A DNA stretch of 59,911 nt, counting the filler, from Catajapyx aquilonaris (Eukaryota), in the NCBI GenBank assembly GCA_000934665.2. It is 3 parts of 3 records of this genome, joined end to end, with 100 filler letters (N's around TTAATTAATTAA, not from the genome) between each part and the next. Parts side by side here need not be neighbours in the genome. Positions count along the whole stretch, not along the records: positions 39,997 to 59,911 come from JYFJ02006369.1; 2 more parts are not named here. One strand, given 5' to 3'. Positions 13,464 to 59,911 of this stretch are shown piece after piece. The translations under genes and the position numbers were made by a program. Every line of letters starts with the position of its first letter. The first letter of the stretch is position 1. Under the pieces are notes generated by a model. The model saw only the letters and a list, made by a program, of their open reading frames with translations, was not told where the DNA came from and did not search any database.

Positions 13464-14565
13464 CGAGGTGTGATCGAAAAGTTCCCGGACTGTGTTCATA
13501 AAAGCATTAATATTTATTTTAAGTCCTAATTTCCACTGCCACCTTCAAAGTAGTCACCTTGGGCACGTAAACAACAATTCCAGCTAATTTCCCATTTTTG
13601 GAAGCACCAAAAAAAATTGGGCAACATCAGTAGTGTGTTCAACACCTGCTGCGATTTTGCTTAGATCTCTTTAGTGGAGTCAAAATGCCTCCTTTTCTAC
13701 CCAAATTTCATTTTAGGGAAGAGGTAGAAATCACATGGTGCCAGGACAAACGAATATGCAGGGTGGGGAACAGTGGTCATGTTATTTTTTATCAGGAAGT
13801 CCCTGACTTACGCGTGAGGTGTGTGCAGGCGGCATTGTCATGGTGCAGCAACCAGTCTATGTTCTTCCACATCTCCGGCCATTTGAGCCTAAATCGTCTC
13901 AAACCATCCTAGCAATACTTGCCGTTGACAGTTTTACCAGGAGGGAGAAACTCCAAATGCGCAATTTATTATTCCTAAAATGTCAAATAAAATGACCAGC
14001 ATTGAGTTGATTTTGCTGCAAACTGGACGCGCCACCTTCGAAGCTGTTAACCCACTCATATGTTATTGCTTGTCTTACAACTTGCTCATCAAAAGCCTTG
14101 TTCAGCATTCGGTTGGTTGCATCCAAAGTTTTGTTGAGCTGGAAGCAAAATTTAATACAAATCTTTTGCTCCCTAACATCAGCCATTTCGAAAAATCGCA
14201 GAAGCACAAGACCAAGGTGTCAAGAAAACTGCCGAAACTCGGAAACATGTGCACCTATGAAAACGAAATTTTTCAGACTAAAGGCCCATTCACACAGGCC
14301 GTCGCGTCGACGGTTTTGGTTTTTGGTCTCGTCGACGCCGCGGACCAATCAGAACGGGCCCTCACGTAAACAACGTGTCATGGTTACCGTGAGGGCCCGC
14401 TCTGATTGGTCCAAAACCAAAACCAAAACCAAAACCGTCGACGGCCTGTGTGAATGGGCCTTAATAGATGAAAGGTGCACCTAGCGCCCCCTAACGTCAC
14501 AAGTTCGTACCTCCACTGGATTGCACGGTATATCGACAGTCCGGGAACTTTTTGATCACACCTCG
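13464..14565 (-). mobile_element. Defective mariner transposon nested in the Helitron
   Basis: TIR cgaggtgtgatcgaaaagttcccggactgt; HTH remnant [15 protein letters not shown]...YEWVNSFEGG; near-identical family copy at 24073-24979. Confidence 0.9.
14282..14461. mobile_element. PIF/Harbinger-type palindromic MITE nested in the mariner
   Basis: taa|aggcccattcacacaggccgtcg...cgacggcctgtgtgaatgggcct|taa; absent from the mariner copy at 24073-24979. Confidence 0.85.
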
Positions 14566-19887: not shown

Positions 19888-19987
19888 NNNNNNNNNNNNN
19901 NNNNNNNNNNNNNNNNNNNNNNNNNNNNNNNTTAATTAATTAANNNNNNNNNNNNNNNNNNNNNNNNNNNNNNNNNNNNNNNNNNNN
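19888..19987. other. Artificial contig linker
   Basis: 44 N + TTAATTAATTAA (stops in all six frames) + 44 N. Confidence 0.95.
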
Positions 19988-32200: not shown

Positions 32201-34493
32201 GTGGGACACTTGCGGGATGTGCGGCGACTGGTTGTAGCAATGTCCCGAGCACGACTTGGCCTGTACATCTTTGCCCGTGTGTCCCTCTTTCGCAACTGCT
32301 TTGAACTGACACCTGCATTTAACCTGGTGAGATACAATTTCAGGCAAAATAAATGTATGGTAGATAGGTGGAATCAAAGAATGGAGACTTCCCCCATCTA
32401 TAGACCCCCTCCCCCAAACAAGTATGATTCCATGCCAGTGTAATGCTCATTACCAGAAAGAAAAGAAACGATTGATTTTTGAGGAAGCTCAAGTAATTTT
32501 TTTGTTACTATAAAAATGTTTTCTCTCTTCTTAAAAAGTAAATACAGAGATCATGCATCATCAACAGACTCTTGGATATACGTGGGTCATTTGATAATTA
32601 TTGGCAACACTGCTGTAATTTTCGTATCAGTATGGCTACACACATGAATATTTCACATTACCTAGGTGCAGTCCCCAGCTATTTTTTTGACATTTTTCCA
32701 TATCCATGAAAAGCTTCTAACGCCGTCAGCAGCGGTTTTTGTGGAGGCGTTACTCAGAGACTGCCCTAAGATATGCTTCCCTCTTACAGAAATGAAAGCC
32801 ATCTAAGGGTTCCTTCATTTATGTAGTTGATTGTAGTCACATGTACTATTAATTGTGAAAGTAATGTCGCACTGTTATGTGATGCCGTCGCGAACGGCAT
32901 CACACAACAGTGCGACATTACTTTTGCGGTTAATAGTACTCATGTCAGATGAATAGAGAGGATGTTCCAACTGCTCCCTTTCCCATTTCTGGAGAAAATT
33001 TCCGAACAGCAATGACTACATGACAGCAAGGGTTGTCATGGAAGACAATGGGTCCCCTCTGCAACAAAGCCTTCCAAGGCGAATTTATGGGCGGAGATGA
33101 TGTTGCAATTATGGTATTGATGCTGCTTTCCAATTTCCATTGCCAATTCCATGCAGGTCCATCGCCGGTCCATATCCAACAGAGTTGTCACAGTTTCGAC
33201 ATGGGTCGGGTCCATTGCAGTACGGGAGGGGGTCTTCTTTAAAAGCTTGTACAAACCTCACAATGGTACGATACGGGAGGCAGAGTCACCACACATCTGC
33301 ACAAGACCTTAATGGTGCTGTCTGGCAGATTTTCCACGTGAAACAGGGATCTTGATGAAGCAGGGCTGTCTTAGGGCGCTCACGTAAATGGCACTTTGAA
33401 CAGGTACTGTCAGCACATACTGCTGCAAATGCTTCACAAATGGTACCGTAGGGTTCCCCATGACTCTAAAAGTACCTATCCACAGTCAGTCCTGGCAGCC
33501 GGGGCTGCCGAGTGGTAACAGTGTTGCCAATAATTATCGGACAACCCACGTACATCCATGCATTATTTGATATGAAAATTTTGATGCTTATTATATGGCC
33601 AAGATATTTAAGTTTTCATTGTGGGCTTACATGCCTATTTCTATTTATACCCATCAGTATAGAGAGGAAAGCAGAAGAAAAAAGAGTCACATATAACCCA
33701 CCCAATGCATGAAACCAGTTGAAGGTCTTGCTGTCTTAATATAAATGTGTTCTAATAAACTAAGTGAATAATTTCAATATTGCTTGTTGATGTAAAAAAG
33801 ATGAGAATACAATACTTCATCAATAATGACAATCTGCACAAAAAATGCAAATACTTTGAAATGCAAACGAATGGACGAACGAATGTAATAAACCTTTATT
33901 TAAAACCTACAGCTTATGAAACGTCCATTGAACCTCCACCTGGTTCCGGGGGAGACTTTCAATGTAGGACGTTCAGTCCATACCCCTCCAGTGGAACCAA
34001 CCATCGTCATTAAGGACATGCCTCAGATGGCCTCATTTGTATATGAGATGTACATGAAGAAGGTGTCAGTCAGCATGGGTGTGCCAACTGTAAGTAGCCA
34101 GGGATAGAATTTTCATCCCACTGCTAGTTACTGCTAACTTAGCAGTACCATTGCTAACACTGGTACTGCTAAGTTAGCTGTGGGTCGAAAATTCCACCCC
34201 AGGTTTTGATCAGTTACAGCAATGAAAAACTATTGTCACAATTTCAGCAAAAGAGCTGGCCTGTAGCTGAGCAGAAGGTACCTGATCATTCAGTGCCACA
34301 ACACCCTGGTGCTGATCGAGACACTGATGAGGAGGATGAAGATGCTGAGGAAGAGGCAAAACAAGCTGAAGAGAAGGACAAACAAGCCAAGGAGAAGGAA
34401 AAACAAGCTGAGGAATTAAACAGTGAAGATTTAAATGACAAGGACACAGAGAAAGAAGAGAGCATGGATGTGAGACCACCTGGTGATGATTAG
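23214..34493 (+). CDS. AQR: RNA helicase aquarius (intron-binding spliceosomal SF1 helicase), 21 coding exons
   Basis: GT-AG exons read at 23214-23294, 23353-23453, 23527-23683, 25185-25391, 25870-26047, 26114-26292, 26356-26469, 26531-26634, 26692-26800, 26857-27070, 27579-27627, 27729-27826, 29416-29771, 30022-30332, 30387-31127, 31188-31348, 31408-31847, 31905-32074, 32129-32326, 33913-34089, 34248-34493. Motifs [83 protein letters not shown]. Confidence 0.96.
23705..25077. mobile_element. pogo/Tigger-like MITE in AQR intron 3, interrupted by a mariner
   Basis: ta|cagtggactctggacataacag ... ctgttatagccagagtcaagtg|ta. Confidence 0.6.
24073..24979 (-). mobile_element. Internally deleted mariner (same family as 13464-14565)
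   Basis: TA-flanked TIRs; remnants WLLHHDNA and [13 protein letters not shown] of a DD34D transposase. Confidence 0.92.
28128..28288. mobile_element. Palindromic TA-flanked MITE in AQR intron
   Basis: ta|cagttctggtcatat...atatgaccagaactg|ta with ~63-bp arms. Confidence 0.8.
32581..33550 (-). mobile_element. Degraded mariner of a second family, with a nested ~100-bp palindrome at ~32844-32939
   Basis: TIR cgtggg..gataattattggcaacactg, TA flanks; remnants [33 protein letters not shown]. Confidence 0.8.
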
Positions 34494-36960
34494 TGGACTA
34501 AGCATTAATTGAAGAGGACTGAGTATTGTGTCAGCACCATCAAGGTTTTGACAGAGTTCACTTATTGCAAATGTGATTTGTCTTGTTTCAAATCAGATTG
34601 GATCTTTTTGAATTAGTTTGCCCAAAAAATGATATCCAATGTCCATAACAGGAGTGTAATTCTTCCATGATCAAATGGTATGAGGTGGCACTTCATGTAG
34701 GAGGACAGTAGGCAAATCTGCTGTATGTAGGACAAAAGCTATCTGCAATGTGCAGTAAGGTCTAGTGTTGCTCATCTGCTTCCATTAGACTTCTTCATCT
34801 GTCATGAAATCCACCTGCAATAGTCTGACTGACCATATGCTGCATATTGCCGATACATCTCCTTTTGTAACCACTACAAAACTGTAACACCCTTGTACTT
34901 TTGATATGAACGCCTTTCCCAATGACCTAGCATTTAGTAGAACTGATATCACTCTAAGTCTGTTGCACAGCAAAATAGGGATATACAGTATTTCAGTTGC
35001 GGGAAGTACATTTCTGCTGAATTTTTTAAATGACTCATGTTCATTTTCATGGCATAATAAAAGTCATGGACGTTGTTTCATGCAAAATTACAACGTTGGG
35101 ATTTCATTATGCAGGTGAGGAATATGAGGAATGCTTGAGTTTTAATTTACACCCAAGCAAATGTCAAAGGGAAAATATTTTTACTTCAATAACATTAGGA
35201 TATCCATAATAGGGTTTCAGTTGCTTGGATGACTCACAGTCAGTAGTTAGGCATTGCAGTTTTGAAGTCCAGATACAAATTGGGGGGTGTCTTGATGGCG
35301 TGATATAATTGGGTAGATAAATTAGAATGATCTTCAGACTATTGATGATGACTACAAGTAGCTGAAAACCATCCCAATCCTGAGCATGCAGGATACATCT
35401 CAATCCCAAAACCTTGATGATGATGTGTTTGCAAGGAATGTTCTTCTCAAGCAGTGTTTCCAATTTGCTGAAACAAATGAAAATACAGTGAAACCTGCCC
35501 ATAACACCCTGGATATATCCCAAACCTATCCATTACAGAAAAACATCCGGGAACAGGCACATGCATAGGGCATGCAATGTATTTTTTACAAGGGAACCTG
35601 CCCAACAGGGGATTTTTGTCTCCCTTCAAAGAAAATCCCTGTTCATAACTGAAATCAAAAGGCTCACATTATCTCCTATGGGTCACAAAAATAGAAGCTA
35701 CAGCTGAGTTCCCTATCAGCCCTCCCAGGAGGCCTCTAAGTAACCCTTTTCGAACAGTTGGTGTGTATCATAATTGCTACTGGCCTATGGCCTTGAAGAT
35801 ATAGGATGAGGAAAGGGGCATGTTGTATTGATGCAATGCAGAAGAATCAGATTAGCTAAAAGCACTGCTCAAGCTCCATCGCTGGGAGCACCATAAAAAT
35901 GGCAATAAATTGTCCAGTTAAAAAAGGTTATCAAACTGATGGATCTGGAAAATTTATCCCCAGAAAAGAACCTCATAGAAACCCAAAGTTGGGATGCTGA
36001 CTTTTCACGTCTGTTTCAAACATGCAGAGGTACCGGATCAGGTCCAGAGGTATCTTTTTGTTCAACTTGGAAAAATAGCCTATAGACTAATAGAGCGATG
36101 CCATAGAGCAGAGCAGAGCGAAATACTGCAGCCCTGACACTTTGTGAGAAATTAACAGTTACTTTTTGAAGAGGTTTGTAAAATAAATGCTAGTAATATT
36201 AGCCAGTTCACGATTTTATCACTTCCTGTTTGGTTTCTCTAAAGACTAAATCGCTCTAGATCCGCAAAACCAAGTGTCGGAAATGGCGAATCCGAAGTCA
36301 GGATGTGTCCTAAGTCAAGCAGGTGGAAGTCCACGGCATGTGCGTGCACTACAGTGACAGTACAGCATTTACACATGGGCCCACTCGGTCTAATATCAGA
36401 AACTAATAATTTTGATAGCTACTAAAAGTAATTGCTTACAAATAAACGGATTAGTGCCAAAATCGTTTAAAATGGAATCTTAATTGGATCACCCTGTTCA
36501 GAACTCGATAGCACATGTGCCACATCAACTAAATAATGGATCCGTAAACCTATTTCCACCCATTTACCATATACACCTTACACGCGGTACGTGAAGCTAA
36601 TATTAGTAGCAACTTTAATTGTCATCCACTTTCAGACGTTACTGCTATTTTGCCATAAAGTGTCATGGCCGCCGATCGCATCTTTCGCCCAGCATAGCCA
36701 ACCTACTTTTACAAAATATATTTCAACTATAAATATATATATGTAAAGGTATTGTAAAGAGTAGCTTTTGAAAATATAAGCACATTAATACATTCCCCAT
36801 AACATTAAAAAACTTCTATAGAAGAAATTGACCTACCGACGCCCGCGATTCTCTTTAGGTCTGGCAACCACGAATCTTACAATACAGTGAATACACGGGA
36901 GATGTGGGGGCAGAAATAGTGGTTTATTGTAGTATTTTTAAATAGTGTTTTACCAGTTTT

Positions 36961-37085
36961 ATGGTCAGTATGAAGTCTATTGGCGATCTACAGTCAGAGC
37001 TGGAGGAAGCACGCGTCAGTCTACGTGGGGTAGATGACAACATCAAGCGCCTGATCGGACGAGACCCCAGCGATTTGCCAAACAG
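36961..37085 (+). CDS. PNN: First coding exon of pinin (not in the supplied ORF track)
   Basis: MVSMKSIGDLQSELEEARVSLRGVDDNIKRLIGRDPSDLPNR then AG|GT donor; matches the pinin N-terminal LxxxLExAKxSLKxVDENIRKLTGRDP pattern. Confidence 0.85.
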
Positions 37086-37535
37086 GTCAGGGTGTCATGG
37101 TTATCCTGTAGCATGGTTGTGGTGAAGGACTGCTTTTCTTAGGGAGGGCTTCACCCGTAACTAGTGCCATGCGGGGGTCTTTTTTTGACCGTAAGCTTAC
37201 GAGAATTAACAGTGTCAAGTTACTGGTTAATTAAAAGCCAAATGCCGTTGTGTATTCCTCAAACAATCTTTGATGTGTTAATATCTTTGAAAATGGCCGG
37301 GGGGGATTCAGGGCCCTCCAAAAAACAGCTATAATCATGGTGGGGTGCATCTGGGGTTAAAAAAAAAAAAAGACCGCATGACACTAGTTACGTGGCTCAG
37401 ACCATGACACTACTTCAGGCTTAATGTGTGTTCTCACAAAATAGGATCTCGATATTGTGACATGTGTTTCTATGCACGGTAAATCAGTTGTGGGCTGTGC
37501 ATGACAGAACAAAAATGATCAGTTATACTGTAAAT

Positions 37536-39896: not shown

Positions 39897-39996
39897 NNNN
39901 NNNNNNNNNNNNNNNNNNNNNNNNNNNNNNNNNNNNNNNNTTAATTAATTAANNNNNNNNNNNNNNNNNNNNNNNNNNNNNNNNNNNNNNNNNNNN
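39897..39996. other. Artificial contig linker
   Basis: 44 N + TTAATTAATTAA + 44 N. Confidence 0.95.
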
Positions 39997-42784: not shown

Positions 42785-45700
42785 GGTGATTGCAGAATTT
42801 AAAGTCATTGCATGTGTGATGGGCATCCAGGGTGGATATGTTAAATACGAAATACCCGTGTTACCACTGCCTGTGGGATAGCCGGGCAGATGACCTACAT
42901 TTCAAGCAGCGAGACTGGCCTGACAGGACGGATTTCACCGAAGGGGAGTTCAACATCCAAAACTCACCGCTCGTCGAAGGATTACAAATCCTAATGTCCC
43001 CACTGCATTTAAAATTAGGATTGATGAAACAATTCGTGAAGGTGTTAGACCAAGATATGTTTCAGCTGAAACGAAAGTTACATTTTCAAGCTAGCTCGAA
43101 AATTTTAATACGACCGCATATTTAAATGATCCTAACTTGCGACATACCCTTTTTTGTTTACAGAGTAAAGAGCATTTAAATACCTGCAAACTCTCTTCCT
43201 TCGCCTATCTGACAAGCAAACCTCCTAGGTGTGGGGATCTACTTTTTGCTGAAACTTTCAGGAATGATTAAGACTAGCTTCAGGATCACTATGGCATAGT
43301 CCAAACCTCTGTAAAATTCCCAGAATCCTCAGAAATTAACTCCAAACCTAATAATTGTGGGAAGCTACTTTTTGCTGAAACTTTCAGGAATGATTAAGAC
43401 TAGCTTCAGGATCACTCTGGCATAGTCCAAACCGCTATAAAATTCCCAGGAGCCCCAAATATTTGGTCCGAATTTGCAACCTTTTTGTGTAGCGTCTTTC
43501 CCAATGCTTGATTTTCCGCCTGAAATATCGGGTTTTTCACGATTTAGAAAAGAAAATCTGGTTTTTGGAACAGTCGGGAGGGAAAGGATGAAAGCGATTC
43601 TATTAATAATAACCCCCCCTAGAGAAACACAGCTAGTCCCCCCTTTCTTTGCTGCACGTGTTCATCTCTGCATCCGCACCTGATCAGCCAGTTGGCCTCA
43701 CTGGCTGTCACTTGGCAGCTGCTTTCTTTGCCCTCTTCCTCGTAATTCTGTGACTCCAATTTGCTTCTTTTGTGTCCTTATCACACCCCTCCTGAACATG
43801 TCCGAAAATCCAGGATCAGCTTTGTTCAGTGACCAAACGGCCCTTATTAGCGCAATCGACCGATCCTGACCAGATCACGACCAGAAGCAAAGGCAGGACA
43901 CCACGCATCATAAACATTACCAAAGTTATTGCGTTGATCTGCCAGAAGCACCGTGTGTCGATGACCCGTCTCCAAGCGCTCATTAATGAAAACATCGATG
44001 TCAACCAGTACGAAGACCTAGAGGTTTTCCTGGACCAAATCCTATATCCAGGAATGGTCAAGATGGGTGTCACCAAGAGTCTCCTTCTCTGCGACTCTTG
44101 GAGTAGCAACAAAAATAGTGAACTCTTCCAGCGTGTCGCCACCAGGTATGATACACCCGCCAGCTCGAGGTGGAACGGCTGATCATTCCCGCTGGCACCA
44201 CCACCGGAATGATTCAGCCGCTGGACGTGTACTACTTTCGCCCATACAAGAGATTTGTACGGCACATAACTGATTCTATGGATATTGACGAGAAGGTCTG
44301 GCAGCGGGAGCGCTACATGAAGCTTCATGCTCTTGCACACTTCCAGTTCCAAGCGCCACGCTTCCAGAATATGGTCAAGTAAGCATTCTGGAAGTGTGGA
44401 TATACTCCCGAGCGACCTGAAGCCTTTGAAGAGACCCCGGTACAGTACTGTTTGGACTTTGACAGTCTTTGTGACTGCGCCGAAGATATCTGCACCGAGG
44501 TTTCCGAGTTCCGCTGTGCGCACTGTAAGAAATGCTTCTGCTTCCATCACTGTTTGTTGGAAAAGGTGCATGATGCAGCGAACTGTGGGACCTATTAAGT
44601 TGGGTAACTGACAGTTTTTGTATAATAATAAATTACCAACTTTGTCCACATAAACTTATGTTTAAAACAGCTCACAGTCAAACAAAGTAGAGTGCTTGCT
44701 GTTAGGCTGCACGGAGAGGGCATTTGGGTTCACCTTTTCATATAGGCGATTGCAAGTGTCAGTTTGGGCGGCAGACCCAATCGTACGCCCGGACTTTCGA
44801 CGCAATCTCGGGGGCTCCTGGGAATTTTATAGCGGTTTGGACTATGCCAGAGTGATCCTGAAGCTAGTCTTAATCATTCCTGAAAGTTTCAGCAAAAAGT
44901 AGCTTCCCACAATTATTAGGTTTGGAGTTAATTTCTGAGGATTCTGGGAATTTTACAGAGGTTTGGACTATGCCAGAGTGATCCTGAAGCTAGGCTTAAT
45001 CATTCCTGAAAGTTTCAGCAAAAAGTAGATCCCCACACCTAGGAGGTTTGCTTGTGAGGCACAAGTTAAAGGTGGGATCTTCATCTGCCCTCAAATAAAC
45101 ACAGCTCTAAAATCGGAGGAGTTTCTCAAAAAACTCAAACCAAAGGAGAAGAAAGCCTGGAGAAGTTTTGGAGACATTGTAGAAAACTTCCTTGGGAACA
45201 ACAAAGCGGACAACTACGAGAAGATTGTCAACGATTTAGTCCTCAACTACGGGGACATGGGCTGCTGAATCACACATCAGCAATTTTTTAACAATTTTGC
45301 ACAATTTTTTTTTTTTGAAAAATTCACCCCCTCCCACCCCACCCCCAATTTCGCGAGTCCTAAGGGATGAAATGAAAGGAACTACGGTCCAAATCAACCA
45401 AATGGGTCTAAGTAACAAGTGGGCAAAGTTGTTTGCTTTTATCACAAAATGCAGTTTTCTGTTGATATTTTCATCGTACCGCGGGGACTATATCATTTTG
45501 AGGGATATAAGAGAGTCTCAGCAAACACTCCCCCCCCCCTCCCCAAATGAAGTCAGAGAATAGGACACATGGTCGTAACAGCATTTAAGCCTGCGGGAAA
45601 CAAGCCTTTCTGGCACGAGTTATAATTAGGAAACAGTTCAGCAGAGGCGCAAAGGTCCAAACCGTTGACCCGAGAGACCACGATCTATGATTTCTTAGCG

Positions 45701-48466: not shown

Positions 48467-49141
48467 TAAAATGCCCGTAGAAAAGAGTCACCAAAATTTG
48501 TATAATATTTCATACCGCACCTTATTTTTGTCATTTTTCAGAAATACAAACGTCACTTTCTGCATTTTCAACATTTTCTGCATTTTTCTGGGTTAGGAGT
48601 TGCTGGGTTACCTGCTGACCGGATACTGGATGGTGTAGATGGCTAGCTAAATCCGGAAGGGAAAGTGCATTCTCTAAGGATAAGTTCAAACGTAGATTTA
48701 TCTCCACTCAAACCACTTGCGCTTATTCGAGTTCAGGTTAAAGCATACACCCCCACCAGAACTATATAAACGCATTCCTGCGTTGCTTCGACCTTCATTC
48801 TCAGTTTGGTATCACGCAGTGGTAGCTTCTCATCCTCAGAAGCTGTTCCTTCGGTAAAAGTGAGTAACATCTTCCATACGATAATTTTCGTGCAGTGAAA
48901 ACATATACTCGCATCGCATGTCCTTAGATCTCAGTAAATATCTAGGTCCTGATCGCAAGGCGTTAGATAGGCGTATTCTAGTGTGCAGGAATATTTTGAA
49001 TGAGTAAAGATTTTTACACAAAGTGAAGAGTTCATAAGATATCAAGGTGTAAACATTTTCGTGATTTGCAGTGACTTTTTATTCCTCGCAATATAAAAGT
49101 AATATTGTATACGCTTTGATCACATTTCTTAGATGGGCCTT

Positions 49142-49399
49142 AGATAAAAGAATTGCAGGTGTAATTAGCCAAAGAGGCCTTACCACCTGTGGGCAACAAT
49201 CCAACAATGTCCGGCTCCCAGATCCATAGAGTCTGGGGCCGGGGCATACGAAACGTTCCAAGTCAATATTGTCCCAAGGATGAACCGGAGCCGAAGCCCC
49301 AGGCCCCCGGAACCAGCATTAGCCCAAGCCCCCCTGGGCCAGCGCCCAGGGGGACCAAACCTCCTACCCACGCACACCAACAGCCCAAGAAACAACCAC
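49142..49399 (+). repeat. Direct repeat, copy 1 (copy 2 at 59653-59911)
   Basis: ~258 bp with only a handful of differences. Confidence 0.95.
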
Positions 49400-49508
49400 G
49401 AATATTGTAACCAATAACAGAAAATAAAGAAAAGAGAACCCTCTCAGACCCCACAACCCCACAACTGCAAAAGACATACAACCCCCCCCCCCCCCAANCA
49501 ACCCTCCA

Positions 49509-50119
49509 ATGCTCTCCCGCCAACTCCAATCGCGGCCGACGACATCAATCATGGATCGAGAACAGAAACTTGTCAGCCGCCAAACAGAAACGACTAAGTG
49601 ACGCCCAGTGAAATTATTGTTCATTACTATGGGTAACAAATGATGCCTTCTCAAGACACCATTCTCCATACATGGGTATTGGGATGTAGACTCCTACTCA
49701 TGCAATGAGACAGAAATAGGGCATCTTGAGAACCTGCTCGAGAGTAATACGACCTTCATCAGAGACACCCAGTGATTTCCGCCAAGCGACATCTACGGAT
49801 GCTGCAACTTCCAAGCACATGAGTTTTGTTACCATCATAACAAAATGACCCCTCATGATTACATGAAGAAAATTGATGATATAAATCAACAATTTAACAA
49901 AGAAACATGGTACCCGTTCACATGGATCAAAAACAGGAACCAGTGTATAATTATACAATTATCCAACCAAAACAGACGTACCCCATCGGAAACACAACAC
50001 TGCAACTTCACTTCGTTGAATCCTGTCGAAGGGTTCCCCATTCCCATGAGAAGATATTCCAAGTCTCATCAGATGAAATGGGGGTCTTGGGTCTTCTTGG
50101 CTTTCGATTTTTGCGATGA
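49509..50119 (+). pseudogene. Disrupted unknown ORF directly upstream of the glycoprotein
   Basis: One reading frame broken only by three TGA codons (49599, 49641, 49773). Confidence 0.45.
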
Positions 50120-51963
50120 CTTTAACCGCCATCGATGGCTACCTATCCTTAGAAAAGTCTCAGATCTCAGTTGCCGACCTTTACAAATGCACAAAAAACA
50201 CAGAAAATCCGTACATCCACCCACTGTATAACTGCAGCGGAAAAATAGGATCAACAAGCCCTATTTTGCAGCAGCCATGGATGAAGTTGATTGGTGGATA
50301 CCAAGATCAATGGACATCCACGCTCAATACCTGTCAAGTACAGGTGGGTATCTGGTCTCTGGACACCTCTGCGTGGAACATAAACGTAACCTACTGTCAT
50401 GGTGTCGAGTACACCTCCAAGTATACCTATTGGTTTTTTGGGGGCGCAGACGGAGACCGTGAAGACAACCCCTGTGACGGTAGATGCAGTGTACTGTAAA
50501 AAAAATACATAAGGGAGCTAGATGAAAAGAGGGAAAATGGATACAAGGGGAACCAGATTGGAGAATTTGTTCATGCAAAACATGGCTGGACAGGAACATC
50601 AACAACAATCTCACGGATAATCATGATCTCCAATTTAACGGTAAGTATGGATCATTGGGATCTAAGCATAAAAACTCTGATCCCATTATCTGGACATTGT
50701 CTCTACAACCAAACTTATTGTTACACTGCGGATCATGGGGTCATGATATGGGAAACTATTCCAGATCCCAGTTGGAATAAAGACAAGTGCAATCACAAAC
50801 TAGATGACGTATTGACATGCCATGTGAGTCTCTCCAAGAATACCGTGGCCACTGTAATATGTCCCACCCATGACTCCATGTTTCGTGTAAATATGACAAG
50901 TGCACAGTTATTATGCAGTGTTTCTGACAAATCCATACAACAAAACCTCTGGACATCAATGGAGGGAAAAGTGATATCCTTTATTACCATGAAGGGTACT
51001 GGATGTTTTCTTTCTTCATTCAAGGTTCCAGTCAGCGAGACAGGCTGTTTTGACAAGAAGAAACTCAAGTATGAAGACCCGTTTGGGAATCTGGACCAAC
51101 AAAACTACGTGTACCTCAATATGGCAAAGGTGGATGGAAAGATGCTGGAGCTAATATATCAAACAATCATTATGGTGAGCAACAAGGCAAATCTGGATGC
51201 AAATTCAATAGATTCATCAGGAATTAAGGGACTGGAGATCAGCTGGTTCAACTCAACACATAGGATGTATAGCAAAAAGACATCTGGAACATTGATCCAA
51301 AGATTGTGTACACTGAGTTATGTGAAATGTCTAAAAATAAAAACGGGATTAGACAATGACAAATGTTTGAGGGCTGAGATAACGGATGGCACGATAGTGA
51401 GGTTTGATCCAACAAACATGATTATCGTGAATGAGGAATACGAGTGCCAGTCATATAAAGATTCTCTCCTCTTACTTAAAGACAACACGATTATGGACTT
51501 AACCACTGGGTCCACTGCAAACGGGGCTGTTTTGGCAAACCCTCATCTTCCTTCAATGGAGGTCAGCTCACACGCCTCCTTGACAGCATTAGACCTGGAT
51601 CGGATAAGTTCCCTATCTATGGTGTTCGACCAACTTAATGCACAGTCTCGGACCCTTATGGATGAGACAAACATGTTCCTCGAGCCGTCATTTGACAATG
51701 ACAAATACAAAACCTCTACAGACACCTCCTCAGGTCCATCATTAGAAGGTTGGAAGAACTGGTTATTAGGCCCACTGTGGTCCATATTTGCCTCCCTCAT
51801 CATAACTGTAATCATCATAATCATAACCATTGTCTTACTCAAGTTTGGGACCAAAATGATATTCTGTCCAAAAGACACCAGCTCAGAACATGAATACATT
51901 TATATGAAACCAAACCCACCCAGCAAGAAAGATTTGAACAGATCACACGATGCATTCAGATAA
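50078..51963 (+). pseudogene. Viral type I membrane glycoprotein (~630 aa reconstructed), class III / Mononegavirales-G-like
   Basis: Signal-peptide-like start (one frameshift), Cys-rich ectodomain with YTYWFFG and HGWTG loop-like motifs, several N-x-S/T sequons, C-terminal TM WSIFASLIITVIIIIITIVLL and short tail; compensating homopolymer frameshifts at ~50440 and ~50500; no introns. Confidence 0.75.
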
Positions 51964-52143
51964 TATAACATTTTTTTTAAAAAAAAAGTGTCTTGAGTGG
52001 AGTTGCTCAGGCGTTTGTACGTATGTTGTTTCTGAGTGCTTATAGATAAACTTTTTGAGTGTAATTGGTTAGGATAGTGTTGTTCAGACGGCACAAGTGT
52101 TAATAAAATTAGTCCAGCTTTCCTGAACTAATTTTATTATTTT

Positions 52144-53331
52144 AAGGGGGGAGAGTATGTGATGACCCTGGGTCATGACCTGATGATTAGTGTGCCCCCG
52201 GGTTAGTCCATATTATTCCTCAAAGTTTAATTGCTGCTTATCTTTTTCGTTGCTTCATCCCAACCTACATTCCTTTCCTTTTGCGCTGCTCCGGCTGATG
52301 TAAGGTATTTTGGGCAGCGCGAGGCAGATTGGAATGTTGACCTTTGTACTTGGTGCTGTCTAGTGAATTCTTTCTTTTGCTCTTCTCGGGGTCGCTCAGG
52401 AGCCAATCGGAGTTAGTAATGTAGAGATGTACTTGATGCGGTCATCTTTGGCCATCCGGGTTAATTTTGCGTTTAGTTTTTCTACCAATGATTTCATTCT
52501 GGTCACTCCGAAGCTTGAGCGAGACCGAGGAAAGAAGCCCCAACTTGGGGACAGTTGGCGGGCACCTATGTAGTGAGTAACATGTAATTTCTGACGGACG
52601 CTGTGGCCCAGCCCTTAGCGCGGGGTTGGTTGGGCACTGGGCAGTCGAAATGGGGGTCTTGGGTCTTCTTGGCGTCAATTAGGCGCGTTCCGGTTTTTTT
52701 CCGGACTTAAAACTTTTCTTGTTTGAACTAATGTGAGGCAACCGGCTTGAAATTGTGATAGCCAGGCGTGAGTGGAGTGATGTTTAGTGATCCCTCCAAA
52801 TTGTGCGGATTGAGAGAAAAAGTGACGTGCAACTGGAAGATGATGGCCGAAAAGGACGCTCTGGACAACCTGAGGGAGAAGAGTGGAGCGGGCCAGAAGT
52901 CTGGTCTCGTCTCTGATTGGTCGAGACGATTGGTCTGAAGCCCCCCGATGGTATCTTCACCTTATCGTGGTGGTGGGGTTTGCGTTTCTCCCGTGACCCC
53001 AAGAGCTATGTCGGCGCGGCGGTAGCTTCGTCTACTGGTAGGGCCACCCAAGCCGGACAGGTCTTTGGGATAGGAGACAGACTAAGAGAGATGCCAGTCT
53101 TTCCTCTCCGTTTCTCTCCATCGGTCACACCTTTGCTTCTTCTACAGCCAGATAGCCACAGTTGCTTCGGCTTCTTCCTAACAAACCAAACCAATCTGAA
53201 GCTGCGCTGTGATTGGTCAGTTATCCGAGACTGGCTCATGTAAACTCGGACTATCGCTTGGCCTTTGCCCTTATCAGCAGACCTCTGACCTCGACTAATT
53301 GTTGGCACGCGCCAGGGCTCGTGCCTCATCA
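52144..53331 (+). mobile_element. Polypurine tract (52144-52155) plus putative 3' LTR (52160-53331)
   Basis: aaggggggagag followed within a few nt by TGATGA...TCATCA inverted termini; only one copy in the window so not confirmed. Confidence 0.6.
52958..53090 (+). ncRNA. Structured RNA motif resembling the conserved 5' leader of RTE-clade retrotransposons
   Basis: caccttatcgtggtgg..gagctatgtcggc..ctggtagggccacccaagccggacaggtc..cagactaagag; internal complementarities tgtcggc/gccggaca, tttctcc/ggagac, ggtgg/ccacc. Confidence 0.5.
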
Positions 53332-53999
53332 GTAGAGCTCGGAAAAAACCGCAGCATCAGCAGGGGGGCCCCCACAGGACCTGTGACCACCCACTCCTCC
53401 CCCACCACCTACCTGGCCGCTCACCCGCCCAGGTGACACCCCGACTAAATAGGCCCGCACCTTTAGAGCATTGCAGCCAGCCATACGTCACCTGGACACC
53501 CGCACATGGTCCCACGTGACGCCCCCATCCCACCACACCTCCACCTCTTGAGCTAAAACAGGGGTTCCCGCTGACTGCTAGAACCGAGGGACTCTGGATT
53601 CAGAGTCCAGCGCCATAGCCCCTCGGCCAGCACCCCTTGGTTGGGGGAAGGTGTGTTGGACCCCGTATGCACATGCCTCGCTGTGACGTAGCACAGGAGG
53701 GGTGGGGCTGTTTGGAGGGGCGGGAGCCATTTTAGTTTTTGGCTGGCTGGCTGGGGCGTTGAATATTCACGCAATCTCTGCCTTGGCTTATCAGTCTTGA
53801 GATATAACAACTAGAGAGACTGGAGGTGAGAGGTCACCTAAAAATAACCCCCACCAACTCTATGTAACGGGGGGCATGGGGCAGAGGGGAGGAGGCGACG
53901 CCATGTTGACAAGGCAGCAGCCATTGTGTATCTTGGGCATCTTTTGCATCTTATGTGTGCACTCTGGGTCACCAGCTACTTATGCTGTTATCTTTCCAG

Positions 54000-54352
54000 A
54001 TCTCATTCAAGCAGTATTATAAAATAGCATATGATCTGCATGTCCGTGTCAGGAACCAGCCCATGCTTGTGGCCCAGGTGGGAGACGAGGATCTTCCGGG
54101 ACCATTATGTTTTGTATATATTGTCCCGGAGCTGTGCTGGCCAGTTAGCCATCAGACTGCAGTGGAATCCGGATTACCTAGGGTTATCATATACCCAGAC
54201 ACTGCAGACACTGAGGCTACTGGAGCAGGAGGGACATCTCCACACCCTTGGCAGTCCCCAGTATGTTGGTTAACAGACTTTCATATTCATAAACTCCTGC
54301 TTATTTGTTTTTTTCTCCCTAGGAAAGAGAGCAACAGCAAGACACAGCATAG
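54000..54352 (+). CDS. Isolated PIWI/Argonaute PAZ C-terminal fragment in a small spliced gene (54000-54260, 54323-54352)
   Basis: ISFKQYYKIAYDLHVRVRNQPMLV...VYIVPELC matches the PIWI PAZ pattern ISFxxYYxxxYxxxIxDxxQPML...LxPELC; acceptor tctttccAG, donor GTatgt, acceptor tctccctAG, then stop. Confidence 0.65.
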
Positions 54353-57300
54353 AAATGTGGTTATTTATTTATTTATTATTATTAAGGTTGTACAATATTA
54401 TTGTGAAATATATCAGATCAACTCTATAATAGTCTGGAACCTTGTCCCAGGTGTTTTTCTCCATAAGGACCCATTGTTTAGCCTTACATCGGGCGATTCA
54501 GCAGATATGTTATCACTGCACACCACATTATGGAAGAATAATGCAGATAACGCCGCTTCCTGGTCTGGTCCACTTCATCGTCGAACACCCACAAGTGGGG
54601 GTCCGTGACCCATTCCACATGACCCACATCATTGCCCTGCATGAAGGTACTACATAATTATATAGTGTAATAATTCAGACGCACACCAAAAGGTCAATGA
54701 ACACCACATCCTTCGCATTTTTCATGTCTTGTGGTGTGATTATCCTATCTGAGGGTTGAGGGAAAGATAGGAGCTGTTGGTTGCTGGGTGATATGGAAAT
54801 GAGCCAACATCCTCCAACTTTTTCCAATCATTCCGAGCCATGGTTGCGTGGCGATCACATCATAAACAGAGATTGACAATTGTGTAGCAGAGTGATGACA
54901 GTGAGGAAGATGAAGAGGTGCAAAGGAGACGGCCAGCCTTGCAGGATCAACTCCGGCGACAGAGAGTGAAACAACAACAACGTCGACGCACGTAATGGAG
55001 GTTCCAGTCTGCCGATGCCGGTGGACCCGGTAGCTATATCAGCGATAGAGCGGCGGGCTGGTGTCCTCTATTTGGGGGAAGCTCCATCGGAACATGGCTG
55101 CGAGTAGACATCTGGAAGGTCTTCAGCTTTGGCTGGAGGTGTGGTAGTGGACAATGGACCCGAAGGTGGATGTCAACCGGCCGGTTTATTTTCGTCCATG
55201 ATTATTCGCAGCATGTGCCCAACCTCTTCTCTGCTAGTGCTAAGCTTTGTATACATGGCTAACCTGGCGTTCATATTCGCCCAAACCTCCGTGGCCTGAA
55301 ACCAACCACATTTCTTCCAGACTGGCTGGGCCCCCCTCTTTTTCCGCCATATATGCCCAGTTTTGTTGGCACGATATGGTAATTGGCACGGTATTGGCAC
55401 GAGCTCGGTCTGTTACATTGTTTGTTGGCATCTGCGAGTTTTTTCCCTAAATGTACCTCTTTTGAAACATTGTGCGCTCCGGGGCTTCCAATTATCCGCG
55501 ATCGCTCTAACTGTTCGAACATTAATACACCGTCATCCTGCTGCTCTCGATGGAACTGTTTTTGTGGGAGAGCATGATATGCTGGCCGCGAGCCGATTGT
55601 AAGTAACGACACGTTCGGTCGAGTTGTTTGCATCAGGCGCAATTATATTTTCAGATTCCTGCGTAGTCGAGCGTTTATTTGGGGATGAGCTGCCCAACCT
55701 TTTTGATGAACAGGCCGAATTGGGATACTTGCTGGAGGTGTATAATTGCGAGGTGTGGGATGAGGAGGAGGGCGGTGGCGGGGTGGGATGGTATCGCATT
55801 GTCAGCGACGTTGTCGAGGCGGAATTTGACGGCGGTGAGTTCGTAAATTTATTTAACGAGAGGCCTCTCCCAAATCTCTACTTGGATTGGGCTCTGGGAG
55901 GCGGTCCTTGGCGCTATTACTGTGTCGACGATTTTTAGGAGGAGGATGATGAATGGGTGGGGGAGGCGCTGGTAAATTTATTCAACGAGGCTCCCCTGGA
56001 GGGCTATTATTTGGAATTTGTGGAGCCGGATGATCTGAGCGCGTCATACTGGGCTCATGTTCAGAGTCCGAGCCGGTTGATTGGCATCTTGCGCGACGAG
56101 TTGCCTTTTGCATGGAGCAAAGGATACTAGGAAGCTAATTCACGGTCGCAACCTCCCTCCTTCTTCCCCCCCTCCGATATATGGCACTCCGCACGCCCCG
56201 TCGTTTCACTCGAGCCATGTCAGTCCAAGTGGTTCTGTTTATTGGGGTCGAACCTCACACGTGTTTTAAACTGCGTCAGAGCGAGCAGGTGGTGGGGGTC
56301 TGGAAAGATGCCCACGAGGTTTTGGCGGATCCGGGGCTCATCCCGGCTGGCCTGGCTCACACCTACAGCTATTGCGTGTACCCCTCCTTCACTTGCACTT
56401 GTCGGGTGCAGAAGAAATTCCGTTTGGATATTAATAGCGGCGTCTCTTGGCTCTCTCACGCCTTGTGCCTGGAATGGTATAAGTGCGGGCGCGGGAGTCT
56501 TTCCCGGATATACTGAATCATTTTTCCCTTCCAGATGCTCGGCTACGAGAAGATGGTTCCTTGTCGAGCGGTGTACCACATGACCACGGAACTCTGTCAG
56601 CTGGCCGTTTTCTGCATGTCCGAATTGGACATGCAGAAAACGGCCAGCAATTGACATTCCTCCAAAGTAAACTTGCAGCCAACAACTAAATGGACCAGAA
56701 CCCAACTCTAAGGAACCAGAATTGAAGCAAACTCCAGCATGACGGAACATCAAAGTGCAATACCCAACATCTATGTAATTATTGAGCAAGACCATCTTCA
56801 TCCGTTGTGGAAAATAAAACGTTGCTCTTATGCCACACTCAGATCCATAATTAAGTCTTTTCATACCAAATGACCACTGCATTGGTTACAAAAGTTTCAT
56901 TTAAAAAAAATATATGCAAGTAGCAGCAATGGTCTCCGTAATTACGGTTGTAAGATGTGGTTATTAAAAAAGTATCTGTATCCGAATTTGATGCAGAAGC
57001 AGCGACATTTTGTAGTGATGTGACATCAACTTGCGATGCCTTGGGACACTGCGTGTCAAAACGATCAGTGTGACACAAAAGGTCAAATGTCAGTGACTGA
57101 ACCCAGTCATGTATATTTAGACATGACCGGCTTTATGAAAAATTGTCACATATATTTATGTGACAATTGTGAATTCGACATATATGAAGCTGCTGTCTAT
57201 TCCGGAGATTTGCAAAAAGGTTAGTTCTGTTGCCCAGAATGCGTCATGTTAAAGCTTCGTTTTTTACCTCCCGCATGGTTATTTTCAATGAAACGTTTGC

Positions 57301-57449
57301 TAGCACAAAAAGCTCTGTCGCGCCAAACAAATAAAACCATTACTGCATAAACGTGGAATGAAGCAATTTGCAGCCGCAGTGCTCAGGACATTGCCAGCGC
57401 ATTCTTAACATTTCTCATAGAAATTCGCGATCAGGACCGTGTGATCATA

Positions 57450-59200
57450 CGGCTCGAGAATGGCTCTTCCCAAAATATGACACCAAATCTCTCTACAACA
57501 AGGAAACAGATCAACGCGAGCTCAAGCACAGAGAAAAAATGGTAATGCAGACCATAGTCATAACAGGGAAAGACAAATGCTTCAAATACATGATGGACTT
57601 AATGAGATCATATGGGTCTTACATAAAACACGACGAAAGGTCTAAATTGACCAGGAGAGCCATAGCCTCCCCATCAATCATTCAGAGGATTTTCCTATAC
57701 ATCGTTGAGGACTTCCATTTGGAACTGGGAAAGGAACTTCCTGACTCAACAATCTCCATAGGCGGCGAAGAAGAAGAAAAAAAAGGCTAAAATCACAACC
57801 GAATTGACGGCGGGATCCAAGGAAGGAATTTTAATGCCAAAAACAGTCCAAGCAACTGAGGACGCAACAAAATGGAATGAATGCTTAAGCGTGGAGTGTT
57901 TCTCTCTCTTCCATGACACAATTTTGGGTGAAGAAGCAAGAAGTTTAACTGGTCTACCAAGACCTAATTCAAATGAAAGACTCTTCAACCAAATACTCCA
58001 AGCCTCACATTTCAACCTAGCAGTAAAGCGCATTTTCCTAAATGAAGGCCCCATCTGCATTCAAAAGTCTGAATATAAGCGAGTACCTTATTCCACCCAA
58101 AACATAAGCAGATTCAATGATAATACCAAAGAATGGGTTTCCCAAGCAGAAAAGCTATTCGATGACAACTACCTAACTGCTAGCCCTGGAATGCTCATGG
58201 GAATGCACAACGCACTGTCAACTACCATCAGGCTACTAGCCGAGAACTTCCTGTTGGACACCACCAAAAGCAATGTTACCACACTCAGGTCGAGTGACGA
58301 CTCCATGACTGTTTTTACAAGAATTGATGATGAATCAATGATAGAGGCCCTACACTCTAACGATTATTGCCTCAAACTCCTAGGAATCAACATCAGTGAC
58401 TCCAAATCTTGGCTGTGCAAGGAATCTTTTGGTGAGTTTACGTCATGGTACCAAGACGGTCAATTCATTGCCCAATTTGGGGTGGAAACCGCCAACATGA
58501 GAGCTGGTGGCCAAAACCCAACAGATGACTTCTTTCAAATAGCAAAGAGCACTGCAAGCTCTCTATCCCGCTTAGAGATGAACCACTGAGGAGCACATTG
58601 CAAGCTGCCAATCGGCATTGACAATGTAAGAAGGTTGTGGAGAATTGAACAAACCCTTCACAAAAGGCAAAATGTGTCTCCCAAAATCCTGGTTCTTGCT
58701 GACGGAGGCCATAGGACCCCACTAACGCTCATCTGGAAGAAACCAGCATTAAATCAATGTGGACAACAACCAAAGAAGAGAAGGAGTACCTATTTAAGAT
58801 AAGGAATCCTGAAAACCCTTTCTCTGCAGCTGCCGAGGAAGAAATAAGTTTTCCAAAGGAAACAAACAGCATTTGTTTGACGCTACTTGAAAATCCTAGG
58901 ACTGTCTTCAACTTCATGAAGAGAAGCAATAGAACTGGTTTGAATAGGGGCAAAGACAATCTAGAAAATGAGAAGTCCAACCTGCATGCTCTTCAAATCC
59001 CTAACCTTATTGATTGCTCAACACTTCTAAAGGTGCCTTCACAGACCTCCACTATTGCAAGTCATCTGACCGGGATGTTAGAGACATACGCGTCCATATT
59101 TAAACTTAGTGACAAAGAGCTTAAATTATTGGCAGACGCCCAAAATAGATTAAGGAATGTAGACACTGATGATGAGAGCCAAACTTTAGACTTTTGTTAG
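57450..59200 (+). pseudogene. PB1: Endogenous orthomyxovirus (quaranjavirus-like) PB1 RdRp, central and C-terminal part
   Basis: RRAIASP, TEDATKWNECL (motif A), SPGMLMGMHNALSTT (B), RSSDDS (C), LLGINIS..KS (D), EFTSWYQDG (E); frameshift ~57780, stop 58587-58589, lesion ~58710, native stop 59198-59200. Confidence 0.95.
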
Positions 59201-59222
59201 AGGACACACACAATGTGTAAAT

Positions 59223-59244
59223 TGAAAAGAGCCTTGTTTCTACT
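59223..59244 (+). promoter_or_regulatory. Orthomyxovirus segment terminus
   Basis: tgaaaagag then CCTTGTTTCTACT (59232-59244), the complement of the conserved influenza A 5' vRNA end AGUAGAAACAAGG, 31 nt after the PB1 stop. Confidence 0.85.
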
Positions 59245-59352
59245 GGCTGCCATCAACTCGGAACTGATTAGCGCAAACGAAATCATTTTGCGGTACTTGG
59301 TCCCAGGACATACATTCATGTCGGCAGACGGAATTCATGGGAAAATCGGTTC
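59245..59352 (+). pseudogene. DDE transposase fragment (Sola1-like)
   Basis: IILRYLVPGHTFMSADGIHGKI resembles the FLxxGHTxMxxDSxH motif. Confidence 0.55.
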
Positions 59353-59355
59353 CTA

Positions 59356-59589
59356 ATGGACGCAGTTCGGATGCCTAACGCTCCACAAATTCAGTTTTAC
59401 GGAAAATATTGGTTTGTGCAAGTTAAGCTATACAGTAACTCACCCTACATCCTCACAAGAGAATATGCCGACCTGGATTTGAATGGGGCAGGCAGCAAGT
59501 TGCNCCCCCCCCCCAAGTTAGTACCAAACTTGATAGGAGCATTGCAAGAGATCGAGTCAGATCTCCGAGGAAAAGGGTATACATTCTAA
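59356..59589 (+). CDS. Small PC4/Sub1-like ssDNA-binding-domain ORF
   Basis: GKYWFVQVKLYSNSPYILTREY...LIGALQEIESDL aligns by eye with PC4 [22 protein letters not shown]...LKEQISDIDDAV; AATAAA follows. Confidence 0.45.
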   Translation: MDAVRMPNAPQIQFYGKYWFVQVKLYSNSPYILTREYADLDLNGAGSKLXPPPKLVPNLIGALQEIESDLRGKGYTF

Positions 59590-59652
59590 TGTGATATCGT
59601 GTTTCTCTCGTAGTAATAAAAATAATTAGCCAATTCTCTCATAGTACCAGCA

Positions 59653-59911
59653 AGATAAAAGGAATTGCAGGTGTAATTAGCCAAAGAGGCCTTACCACCT
59701 GTGGGCAACAAACCAACAATGTCCGGCTCCCAGATCCATAGGGTCTGGGGCCGGGGCATACGAAACGTTCCAAGTCAATATTGTCCCAAGGAAGAACAGG
59801 AGCCGAAGCCCCAGGCCCCCGGAACCAGCATTAGCCCAAGCCCCCCTGGGCCAGCGCTCAGGGGGACCAAACCTCCTACCCACGCACACCAACAGCCCAA
59901 GAAAAAACCAC
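59653..59911 (+). repeat. Direct repeat, copy 2, running off the window end
   Basis: Near-identical to 49142-49399. Confidence 0.95.

Follow-up and report, generated by a model that had tools for sequence, protein, structure and literature searches.

Background

PIWI-clade Argonautes carry N, L1, L2, MID and PIWI domains besides PAZ, and a complete PAZ domain consists of a barrel and an insertion module, about 110-125 residues in all, with a pocket for the 3' end. PMC7015924 describes an RNA-binding PAZ construct of Piwi that spans residues 262-374, the whole domain having precipitated without a solubility tag. The same source gives micromolar Kd values for the binding of 2'-O-methylated RNA ends by isolated complete PAZ domains, and reports that mutation of Y327/Y328 in Piwi led to less association with mature piRNAs. 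Here we examined a PAZ-coding piece in the genome of Catajapyx aquilonaris (assembly GCA_000934665.2), in a stretch of 59,911 nucleotides that we refer to as the window. The piece resembles the C-terminal part of the PAZ domain in PIWI-clade proteins (Drosophila Piwi, 6KR6; Hiwi1, 3O7V, 3O3I and 3O6E; mouse Miwi, 2XFM; Bombyx Siwi, 5GUH), with which it has ISF-YY, NQP-L and PELC in common. Unlike these proteins, the window holds only about 40% of a PAZ domain and none of the other Argonaute domains in the frames scanned, and the piece cannot be a guide-loaded effector.

Three other kinds of described system invite comparison. Insect genomes contain partial, unprocessed duplicates of genes as well as pseudogene fragments that consist of an orphan exon, and the piece resembles these in its exon size, its intron-like flank, its place in repeat-rich DNA and the existence of a related copy elsewhere in the species (91% over 86 nt); the present case differs in that parent gene and break points are putative. 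Tombusvirus p19 is an example of a virus-encoded RNA-silencing suppressor that sequesters small RNAs. Suppressors of the p19 type are alike only in the function that an earlier note on this DNA had proposed for the piece, that of a decoy for small RNAs; they have no sequence or structural relation to it, and its binding domain is incomplete. Finally, the mouse pseudogene piRNAs (PMC4352877) and the mosquito nrEVE clusters (bioRxiv 10.1101/2022.08.22.504762) are comparable in that the piece is a host-gene fragment co-oriented with viral remnants and transposon debris, but the PAZ locus, unlike them, is known from DNA sequence alone.

Results

The earlier note had described about 50 residues from the C-terminal half of a PAZ domain and had suggested a search with the PAZ profile, and on both points it was borne out. 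The open frame that begins at 53910 on the plus strand matched Pfam PF02170 with an E-value of 1.1e-7 and a score of 32.3 bits, above the curated gathering cut-off of 28.8, and the match was still significant once the 614 scanned frames were allowed for. It covers residues 30-82 of the frame (approximately 53997-54155 of the window) and positions 61-106 of the 123 in the profile. Within it, the 49 codons of the PAZ piece (Table 1) contain neither stops nor frameshifts and keep the conserved residues ISF..YY...NQP.L...PELC. A phmmer search of solved structures returned 11 sequences at E ≤ 1, of which 10 were of the PIWI clade and aligned at the C-terminal part of PAZ; the remaining one, Trm112, was rejected as spurious, and neither AGO-clade nor Dicer chains were among the 11. 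The best match was Drosophila Piwi (6kr6_A, residues 289-337, E 0.002), with 18 identities in 48 aligned residues as counted from the alignment, and 19 identities were counted where positions 64-114 of the 124-residue Hiwi1 PAZ construct align to the piece. In the ESM Atlas, used as a lead only, the first match stood at 0.97 and PAZ clusters made up 20 of the 30 matches. The PAZ of the piece is closer to the PIWI clade than to the AGO clade, and by numbering offset its two tyrosines would be the equivalents of Piwi Y327/Y328.

The domain is truncated. The first 60 or so positions of the PAZ profile, RNA-contacting residues among them, are missing from the piece, and no upstream frame encoding this half was found among the frames of 28-59 aa scanned over 32.4-51.4 kb (plus strand) and 51.5-57.4 kb. 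The search with the 49 residues yielded no longer (full-length) protein relatives. An AlphaFold2 model of the 93-residue product that would run from ATG 53982 to 54260, made without an alignment, was uninformative (mean pLDDT 42, pTM 0.27).

Table 1. Position of the PAZ piece, its signals and its neighbours in the window
Feature	Position	Strand	Remarks
Tc5-type transposase C-terminus	44383-44595	+	From the open-frame scan
Viral-glycoprotein-like frame	50500-51960	+	Recognisable remnant
GC-rich upstream flank	53262..53724	.	Low-copy dispersed repeat; at least one other copy, about 90% alike, in the source genome
Stop-to-stop open frame	53910..54608	+	232 codons, holds the PAZ piece; in-frame ATG at 53982
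Pyrimidine-rich tract	53981..53999	+	Acceptor-like, ends in AG (53998-53999), adjoins the first PAZ codon (54000)
PAZ-coding piece	54000..54146	+	49 codons like the C-terminal part of PIWI-clade PAZ (Pfam, solved structures, ESM Atlas)
GTTAGC	54144..54149	+	Possible relic donor, read from the sequence, where protein homology stops
Frame continuation	54147..54260	+	No detectable relatives; no Pfam match past residue 82
62-nt GT..AG motif	54261..54322	+	Putative intron; GTATGT, T-rich tract, TAG; GT at 54261-62, AG at 54321-22
Nine codons and TAG	54323..54352	+	TAG at 54350-54352; end of the product if the 62-nt motif is spliced
Orthomyxo-like PB1 remnant	57491-59185	+	3.3 kb downstream of the PAZ piece, with a high-depth repeat between

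Across the window, 614 open frames were scanned, and no match to ArgoN, ArgoL1, ArgoL2, ArgoMid or Piwi was obtained in them. The scan took in 353 of the 357 frames of at least 60 aa (four with long runs of N were omitted), together with frames of 28-59 aa, 111 of them on both strands of 51.5-57.4 kb and 150 on the plus strand of 32.4-51.4 kb; its scope ended short of 15 frames of this size beyond 57.4 kb. The PAZ piece was the sole Argonaute-family match in these frames, in agreement with the earlier statement that neither MID nor PIWI lies nearby. Upstream, the plus strand is taken up by AQR (23.5-32.4 kb) and a Pinin-like exon. Since these genes lie there and the scanned frames hold no other Argonaute domain, the piece does not belong as an exon to any normal Piwi gene.

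We also considered the reading frame and the signals around it. Of the 5694 frames in the window only four are longer than the 232-codon frame, and when 53000-55500 was shuffled 2000 times by mononucleotide, 7 shuffles gave a frame of at least this length. Its ATG at 53982 lies inside the acceptor-like tract and has four other ATGs ahead of it in a span of 120 nt, a poor start context; those at 53862, 53876, 53903 and 53953 are either out of frame or open frames of 1 to 48 codons. In the parent gene the tract probably closed an intron, and AQR introns in the same window have comparable 3' ends (tttccag and atttcag). Donor-like sites follow the acceptor-like AG at 54078, 54144 and 54261. If GTTAGC, the second of these, had served as a donor, the homologous piece would amount to one 144-nt phase-0 exon; a GTTTGC donor is apparently used in the AQR gene. 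The sequence after the PAZ piece had been called unrelated, and this description stands, with no relatives of the whole 232-aa frame found among 1.84 billion representatives (HMMER, E ≤ 0.001), a result that says little because the homologous core is only 49 residues long. As to the 62-nt GT-AG intron and stop that had been claimed, the motif and the TAG are both present, and the motif has the usual intron size of the host (about 66 and 63 nt in AQR); splicing itself was not recovered, in that the 54260^54323 joint was in no contig of the sequencing runs examined, where missing joints prove nothing, and a look for runs recorded as RNA turned up none that contains the stretch.

Contigs from two samples were compared with the window. 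In another sample of the same organism, a 313-letter contig matches the window at 53997-54082 only, with 8 differences in 86 (91%); its remaining 226 letters do not resemble what precedes 53997 in the window. A related copy therefore exists, and the likeness begins at the putative exon edge; this copy would be a Piwi gene. Other contigs of the second sample are identical to the window at 54387-54642, 54734-55019 and 55583-55783 (these are no evidence of expression), and none is identical over 54000-54386, a kind of gap that proves nothing. Two contigs of the source sample lie over the piece (53146-54015 and 53995-55047), both identical to the window, at depths of 16.2 and 13.5. For 54096-54823 the summed depth was 13.5/14.7, equal to that of the PB1 remnant (12.9-15.3), with flanking repeats in the thousands. 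This low value is compatible with a low-copy stretch, summed depth not being a copy number. The other copy of the upstream flank corresponds to 53262-53418 and 53599-53724, with 15 and 14 differing letters respectively, and its middle part is replaced.

The earlier note had placed a lone PIWI-type PAZ in a virus and transposon setting, and virus-derived genes and transposon remnants do occur in the same stretch. Downstream of the host genes, in 43-60 kb, all four recognisable foreign or orphan coding remnants (the PAZ piece included) are on the plus strand, for which the chance is 1 in 8, and high-depth repeats are interspersed among them. The neighbouring viral remnants, broken in their turn, derive from RNA viruses of the negative-strand type; they are insertions separate from the PAZ piece. 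No LTR or TIR pair (direct or inverted repeats) was found around 53.4-55.9 kb. There is a single long direct repeat, with copies at 49142-49399 and 59653-59911 (97% alike, the second copy cut by the end of the window). It was tried as the boundary of an LTR element and rejected, both copies belonging to a family of very high depth and no RT, integrase or gag match lying between them; the two may instead be independent insertions. Capture of the Helitron type was likewise rejected, since the 22-nt perfect palindrome at 56600-56648 comes with no convincing element end. Rfam gave only sub-threshold, miRNA-like matches at this palindrome, and no tRNA genes were found.

Discussion

We consider it likely that the PAZ piece is inert, a partial copy that goes back to one exon of a host Piwi gene, and not a working mini-gene. 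This single exon, encoding the C-terminal 40% or so of PAZ, would have been duplicated together with the closing part of the intron before it, presumably at the DNA level, and the copy would have come to lie between genes, in DNA rich in repeats and EVEs. It may be young enough for its 49 codons to have stayed open with the conserved PAZ residues retained. Having neither a promoter-to-stop gene structure of its own nor partner domains, it would play no protein role. This reading is supported by the confinement of homology to 49 codons, the acceptor-like site at the 5' edge, the related copy whose likeness begins at that edge, the isolation of the piece, the absence of bounding repeats, the upstream ATGs and the low depth. 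Against it stand the intact codons with their conserved motifs, the unusually long frame and the well-formed 62-nt GT..AG motif. The outcome lies close to the case that the earlier note itself had named as contrary to its proposal, in which the piece is one duplicate, by now diverged, of an exon from a host piwi.

An alternative that we regard as unlikely is that the piece is carried along in a piRNA cluster with EVEs, that 43-60 kb is the precursor, and that small RNAs from 54000-54146 pair with the mRNA of a related Piwi paralogue and modulate it. The shared strand of the four remnants and the high-depth repeats among them would suit such a cluster, as would the EVE-rich piRNA clusters of mosquitoes and the mammalian pseudogene-derived piRNAs that act on parent genes, as described in the two sources cited above for nrEVE clusters and pseudogene piRNAs. 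However, four of four on one strand are too few to reach significance, and the homologous target is only about 150 nt. AQR and the Pinin-like exon share their strand with the remnants, so read-through from these upstream genes would yield sense rather than antisense small RNAs. A primate study (PMC6461890) also points the other way, in arguing for limited regulatory relevance of pseudogenes in piRNA clusters. A further form of the proposal, in which the PAZ fragment, co-oriented with two remnants of negative-strand RNA viruses, would yield piRNAs against a fast-evolving Piwi paralogue and so close an autoregulatory loop, is improbable.

It is also quite unlikely that the piece has been exonised, that is, that its intact acceptor allows splicing into a transcript (read-through, TE-driven or chimeric, whether coding or not) and makes it part of a young chimeric gene. 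The acceptor-like AG at 53998-99, the donor-like sites at 54078, 54144 and 54261, the host-typical size of the 62-nt intron motif and the unusual length of the open frame would fit this reading, and the dispersed element that forms the upstream flank is GC-rich and carries a CRE-like TGACGTAG. However, neither an exon nor a donor nor a coding partner was identified upstream, the rest of the frame is without a homologue among the 1.84 billion representatives, and the joint was in no contig of the runs examined.

Searches aimed at a viral origin were negative. Peptide patterns gave 13 matches in viral contigs and 428 in metagenome contigs, none of them confirmed, so that there was no confirmed relative in 2.9 million viral contigs, and a literature search for virus-encoded PAZ found no paper. 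The decoy proposed by the earlier note, a virus- or transposon-borne mini-protein that would be translated from ATG 53982, bind the 3' ends of small RNAs and suppress silencing, can draw on the open frame, the retained YY and PELC motifs and the micromolar affinity of complete isolated PAZ domains for 2'-O-methylated RNA ends (PMC7015924), but it is very improbable and we do not uphold it, given a match to profile positions 61-106 of 123 from which the RNA-contacting residues are gone, four ATGs ahead of the in-frame one, no terminal repeats or other virus or TE unit around the piece, a summed depth as low as that of other unique parts, no viral-contig relative, and adjacent remnants that are separate, broken RNA-virus insertions.

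If the piece is, as we think likely, an inert exon duplicate, it is of little weight as it stands. The turnover of gene families commonly leaves orphan exon fragments behind. It is a caution for annotation as well, because predictions of 60-100-residue 'PAZ domain-containing proteins' already cluster in protein atlases. Were it true that the fragment feeds piRNAs against a Piwi paralogue, it would be a rare case of a pathway regulating its own effector.

Identity and isolation of the PAZ piece

Judged by its sequence, the PAZ piece is a member of the PIWI-clade PAZ family. The profile comparison proposed in the earlier note matched the stop-to-stop frame at 53910-54605 (+) to Pfam PF02170 PAZ with 32.3 bits (E 1.1e-7; gathering score 28.8 bits), the alignment spanning frame residues 30-82 (window ~53997-54155) and profile positions 61-106 of 123. 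When 53997-54260 was compared with solved structures by phmmer, 11 sequences were retrieved at E<=1, ten of them PIWI-clade and each aligned at the C-terminal part of PAZ: these included Drosophila Piwi (6kr6_A, chain residues 289-337, E 0.002), Hiwi1/Miwi PAZ constructs (64-114 of 124), Siwi and sponge Piwi-A. The eleventh, Trm112, is spurious. Identity to Drosophila Piwi is 18 of 48 residues, counted by eye from the alignment, and the ISF-YY, NQP-L and PELC motifs are retained in the phmmer alignments. ESM Atlas placed 20 of 30 matches in PAZ clusters, the top one at 0.97, as a lead only. The piece is neither a complete PAZ domain nor a complete Argonaute. The earlier description of about 50 aa of the C-terminal half of PAZ, followed by unrelated sequence, holds: no homology is detectable in the open frame beyond ~54146. 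That note had also proposed a 62-nt GT-AG intron and a stop. The motif (GTATGT...T-rich...TAG, 54261-54322) and the TAG (54350-52) are both present; in a spliced product, the latter would be reached after nine codons.

The PAZ piece was the sole Argonaute-family match among 614 frames scanned, which agrees with the earlier statement that no MID/PIWI domain lies nearby. For frames of >=60 aa, the Pfam scan took in 353 of the window's 357, counting both strands (the other four hold long N runs). Shorter frames (28-59 aa) were scanned in two regions: 111 at 51.5-57.4 kb, where both strands were used, and 150 at 32.4-51.4 kb, where the + strand was used; 15 beyond 57.4 kb were left out. Because host introns are ~65 nt, the adjoining exons of a real Piwi gene would be expected within a few hundred bases, and none was found at that distance from the piece.

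A related copy and the exon boundaries

Public runs were queried with 53700-54700, and the contigs were then aligned to 49000-59911 at 85% likeness. Of the sampled words, 0.99 were present in four runs from a single sample, possibly the one behind the assembly, and 0.24 in X5, a run of unknown kind that comes from a different sample of this organism; no matching run is on record as RNA. Source-run contigs over 53146-54015 and 53995-55047 were identical to the window. A 313-letter X5 contig matched over 86 letters at 53997-54082 with 8 mismatched (91%), its other 226 letters differing from the window upstream. Since further X5 contigs (54387-54642, 54734-55019 and 55583-55783) match the window identically, this contig represents a related copy and not an allele of the locus.

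The first homologous codon, at 54000, is directly preceded by a pyrimidine-rich tract and AG (53998-99). As the likeness of the X5 contig starts at this AG|exon edge, the contig would be one of the Piwi paralogues, and 54000 would genuinely mark the edge of an exon in the parent. Given that boundary, the window's acceptor-like tract would point to copying at the DNA level, with the end of the upstream intron carried along. A GTTAGC at 54144 coincides with the end of protein homology and could be the relic donor of the parent exon, because the host gene AQR appears to use GTTTGC; the piece would then be one 144-nt, phase-0 exon. AQR supplies the host context for splice sites and intron size, two of its introns being read from the sequence as ~66 and ~63 nt.

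Capacity to work as a protein

It is unlikely that the PAZ piece works as a protein, as it holds only ~40% of the domain. In PMC7015924, the RNA-binding Piwi PAZ construct comprises residues 262-374 (Kd 4.0 uM for a 2'-O-methylated 8-mer), and this whole construct precipitated after removal of its SUMO tag. The 6kr6 chain has 810 residues; taking an offset of 33, which agrees with the Pfam coordinates, the piece would correspond to Piwi 322-370, with equivalents of Y327/Y328 kept and 262-321 missing. For the AePiwi4 PAZ (111 residues), PMC8657434 names Y40 and F55 as conserved residues hydrogen-bonding RNA, and the equivalents of both would fall in the missing half. The sole in-frame ATG (53982) lies within the acceptor-like tract, and four further ATGs come before it (53862, 53876, 53903 and 53953), each either in another frame or starting just a short one. 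AlphaFold2 modelled the product with low confidence (pLDDT 42), which says nothing for or against function.

Surroundings of the PAZ piece

The window is eukaryotic and insect-like, and repeat-rich from ~43 kb to its end.

Principal features of the window and the evidence for each
Feature	Position	Strand	Evidence
Mariner-type element, two copies	13462-14565, 24071-24979		Mos1 HTH_48 and partial DDE transposase matches
Intron-binding protein Aquarius (AQR) gene	~23.5-32.4 kb (23501-32440)	+	Many exons; Pfam Aquarius_N_1st/2nd/3rd, AAA_11, AAA_12
Pinin_SDK_N match, 59-aa open frame	36946-37122	+	E 4.6e-7, 30.6 bits, just below 31.1 cut-off
Likely young DNA transposon	43209-45058		248-nt terminal inverted repeats 43209-43456 / 44811-45058, 98.8% alike
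Glycoprotein-like 487-codon open frame	50500-51960	+	ESM Atlas features only
PAZ piece	54000-54146	+	49 codons like C-terminal part of PIWI-clade PAZ
Endogenous orthomyxo-like virus PB1 polymerase remnant	57491-59185	+	Flu_PB1 matches in three open frames

The earlier note had suggested capture of the PAZ by a DNA virus or transposon, and nothing in the surroundings supports this. No bounding direct or inverted repeat was found at 53.4-55.9 kb, and the viral-contig collection yielded no relative of the PAZ peptide. No paper on a virus-encoded PAZ was among the 15 that a literature search listed, which is not proof of absence. The viral neighbours are separate insertions derived from RNA viruses. 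The PB1 remnant (Flu_PB1 E-values 1.5e-13, 9.2e-31 and 9.4e-5) spans ~residues 224-792 of ~797, with the first ~225 missing, and is broken: it is split over two frames and is interrupted by an in-frame stop near 58587; its 275-aa frame is 41-47% identical to insect orthomyxo-like PB1 in the first 20 of 74 listed matches and 35-48% across all 74. The glycoprotein-like frame is rich in cysteines, contains N-x-S/T sites and has a hydrophobic anchor at its C-terminus; its start shows no evident signal peptide. It gave no Pfam match and no homologue in a 5.8-billion-protein search, its resemblance to Monjiviricetes/rhabdovirus-type fusion glycoproteins coming from ESM Atlas alone (0.96, 19/30) as a lead only; a second copy, ~86% alike, occurs in source-run contigs.

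A long direct repeat (49142-49399 / 59653-59911, 97% alike, the window ending within the second copy) has a summed contig depth in the thousands, and a scan of open frames found nothing retrotransposon-like between its copies. In the source runs, the repeats at 52640-53367, 49000-49727 and 59556-59911 likewise reached thousands (maximum 21,220, over 53004-53367) versus ~14 over unique parts. Over 54096-54823 the depth was 13.5 (X1) and 14.7 (X4), equal to that of the PB1 remnant (12.9-15.3); this is compatible with low copy, and only that, since depth is not a copy number.

The DNA transposon holds a Tc5 transposase C-terminal domain match (44383-44595 (+), E 3.7e-11) and, on the opposite strand, a 279-aa open frame without a Pfam match. 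A 22-nt palindrome without mismatches and with a loop of 5 nt (56600-56648) lies within a repeat of very high X1 summed depth (56280-56643); its Rfam miRNA-family matches are sub-threshold (40.5 vs 90 bits). The mariner-type copies, one just upstream of AQR, are 93.5% alike over 818 nt and 98% alike over a further 102 nt. The 771 nt at 9570-10339 form a long foldback, matching their own reverse complement at 95%, and probably belong with the related arms at 4754-5336 to a foldback or MITE-like repeat family. The Pinin_SDK_N match probably marks an exon of a host gene related to pinin. Pairs of 44-N runs at 19888-19987 and 39897-39996, ~20 kb apart with 12 bases inside each, appear to be gaps from masking or assembly rather than biological features.

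Interpretation

We consider it probable that the PAZ piece is an inert partial duplicate of a Piwi exon, and some probability is reserved for unforeseen readings. The piece could instead be a passenger in a piRNA source, which we regard as unlikely. All four recognisable remnants in 43-60 kb (the Tc5-type transposase piece, the glycoprotein-like frame, the PAZ piece and the PB1 remnant) are co-oriented, a layout that a one-strand piRNA cluster would show. However, such agreement would arise by chance 1 time in 8, and PMC6461890 argues that in primates the regulatory relevance of pseudogenes in piRNA clusters is limited.

All 49 PAZ codons are undamaged, and the 232-codon frame (53910-54608) ranks fifth in length among the window's 5694 frames; only 7 of 2000 mononucleotide shuffles of 53000-55500 gave one of at least 232 codons. 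Because the codons are intact, the frame unusually long and the 62-nt GT..AG motif of the host's usual intron size, exonisation or a young chimeric transcript stays in consideration, at quite low probability. The same observations fit a young copy and some chance. Of the 232 codons, 183 are without detectable relatives, and the frame's length is possibly chance. A translated small-RNA decoy is very improbable, with only part of the domain present, no bounding repeats and no viral-contig relative.

On the reading that we favor, the piece counts among partial gene duplicates, also called orphan-exon pseudogenes. If small RNAs arise from it, it would join the known class of pseudogene-derived piRNAs (PMC4352877) and of EVE-bearing clusters (bioRxiv 10.1101/2022.08.22.504762).
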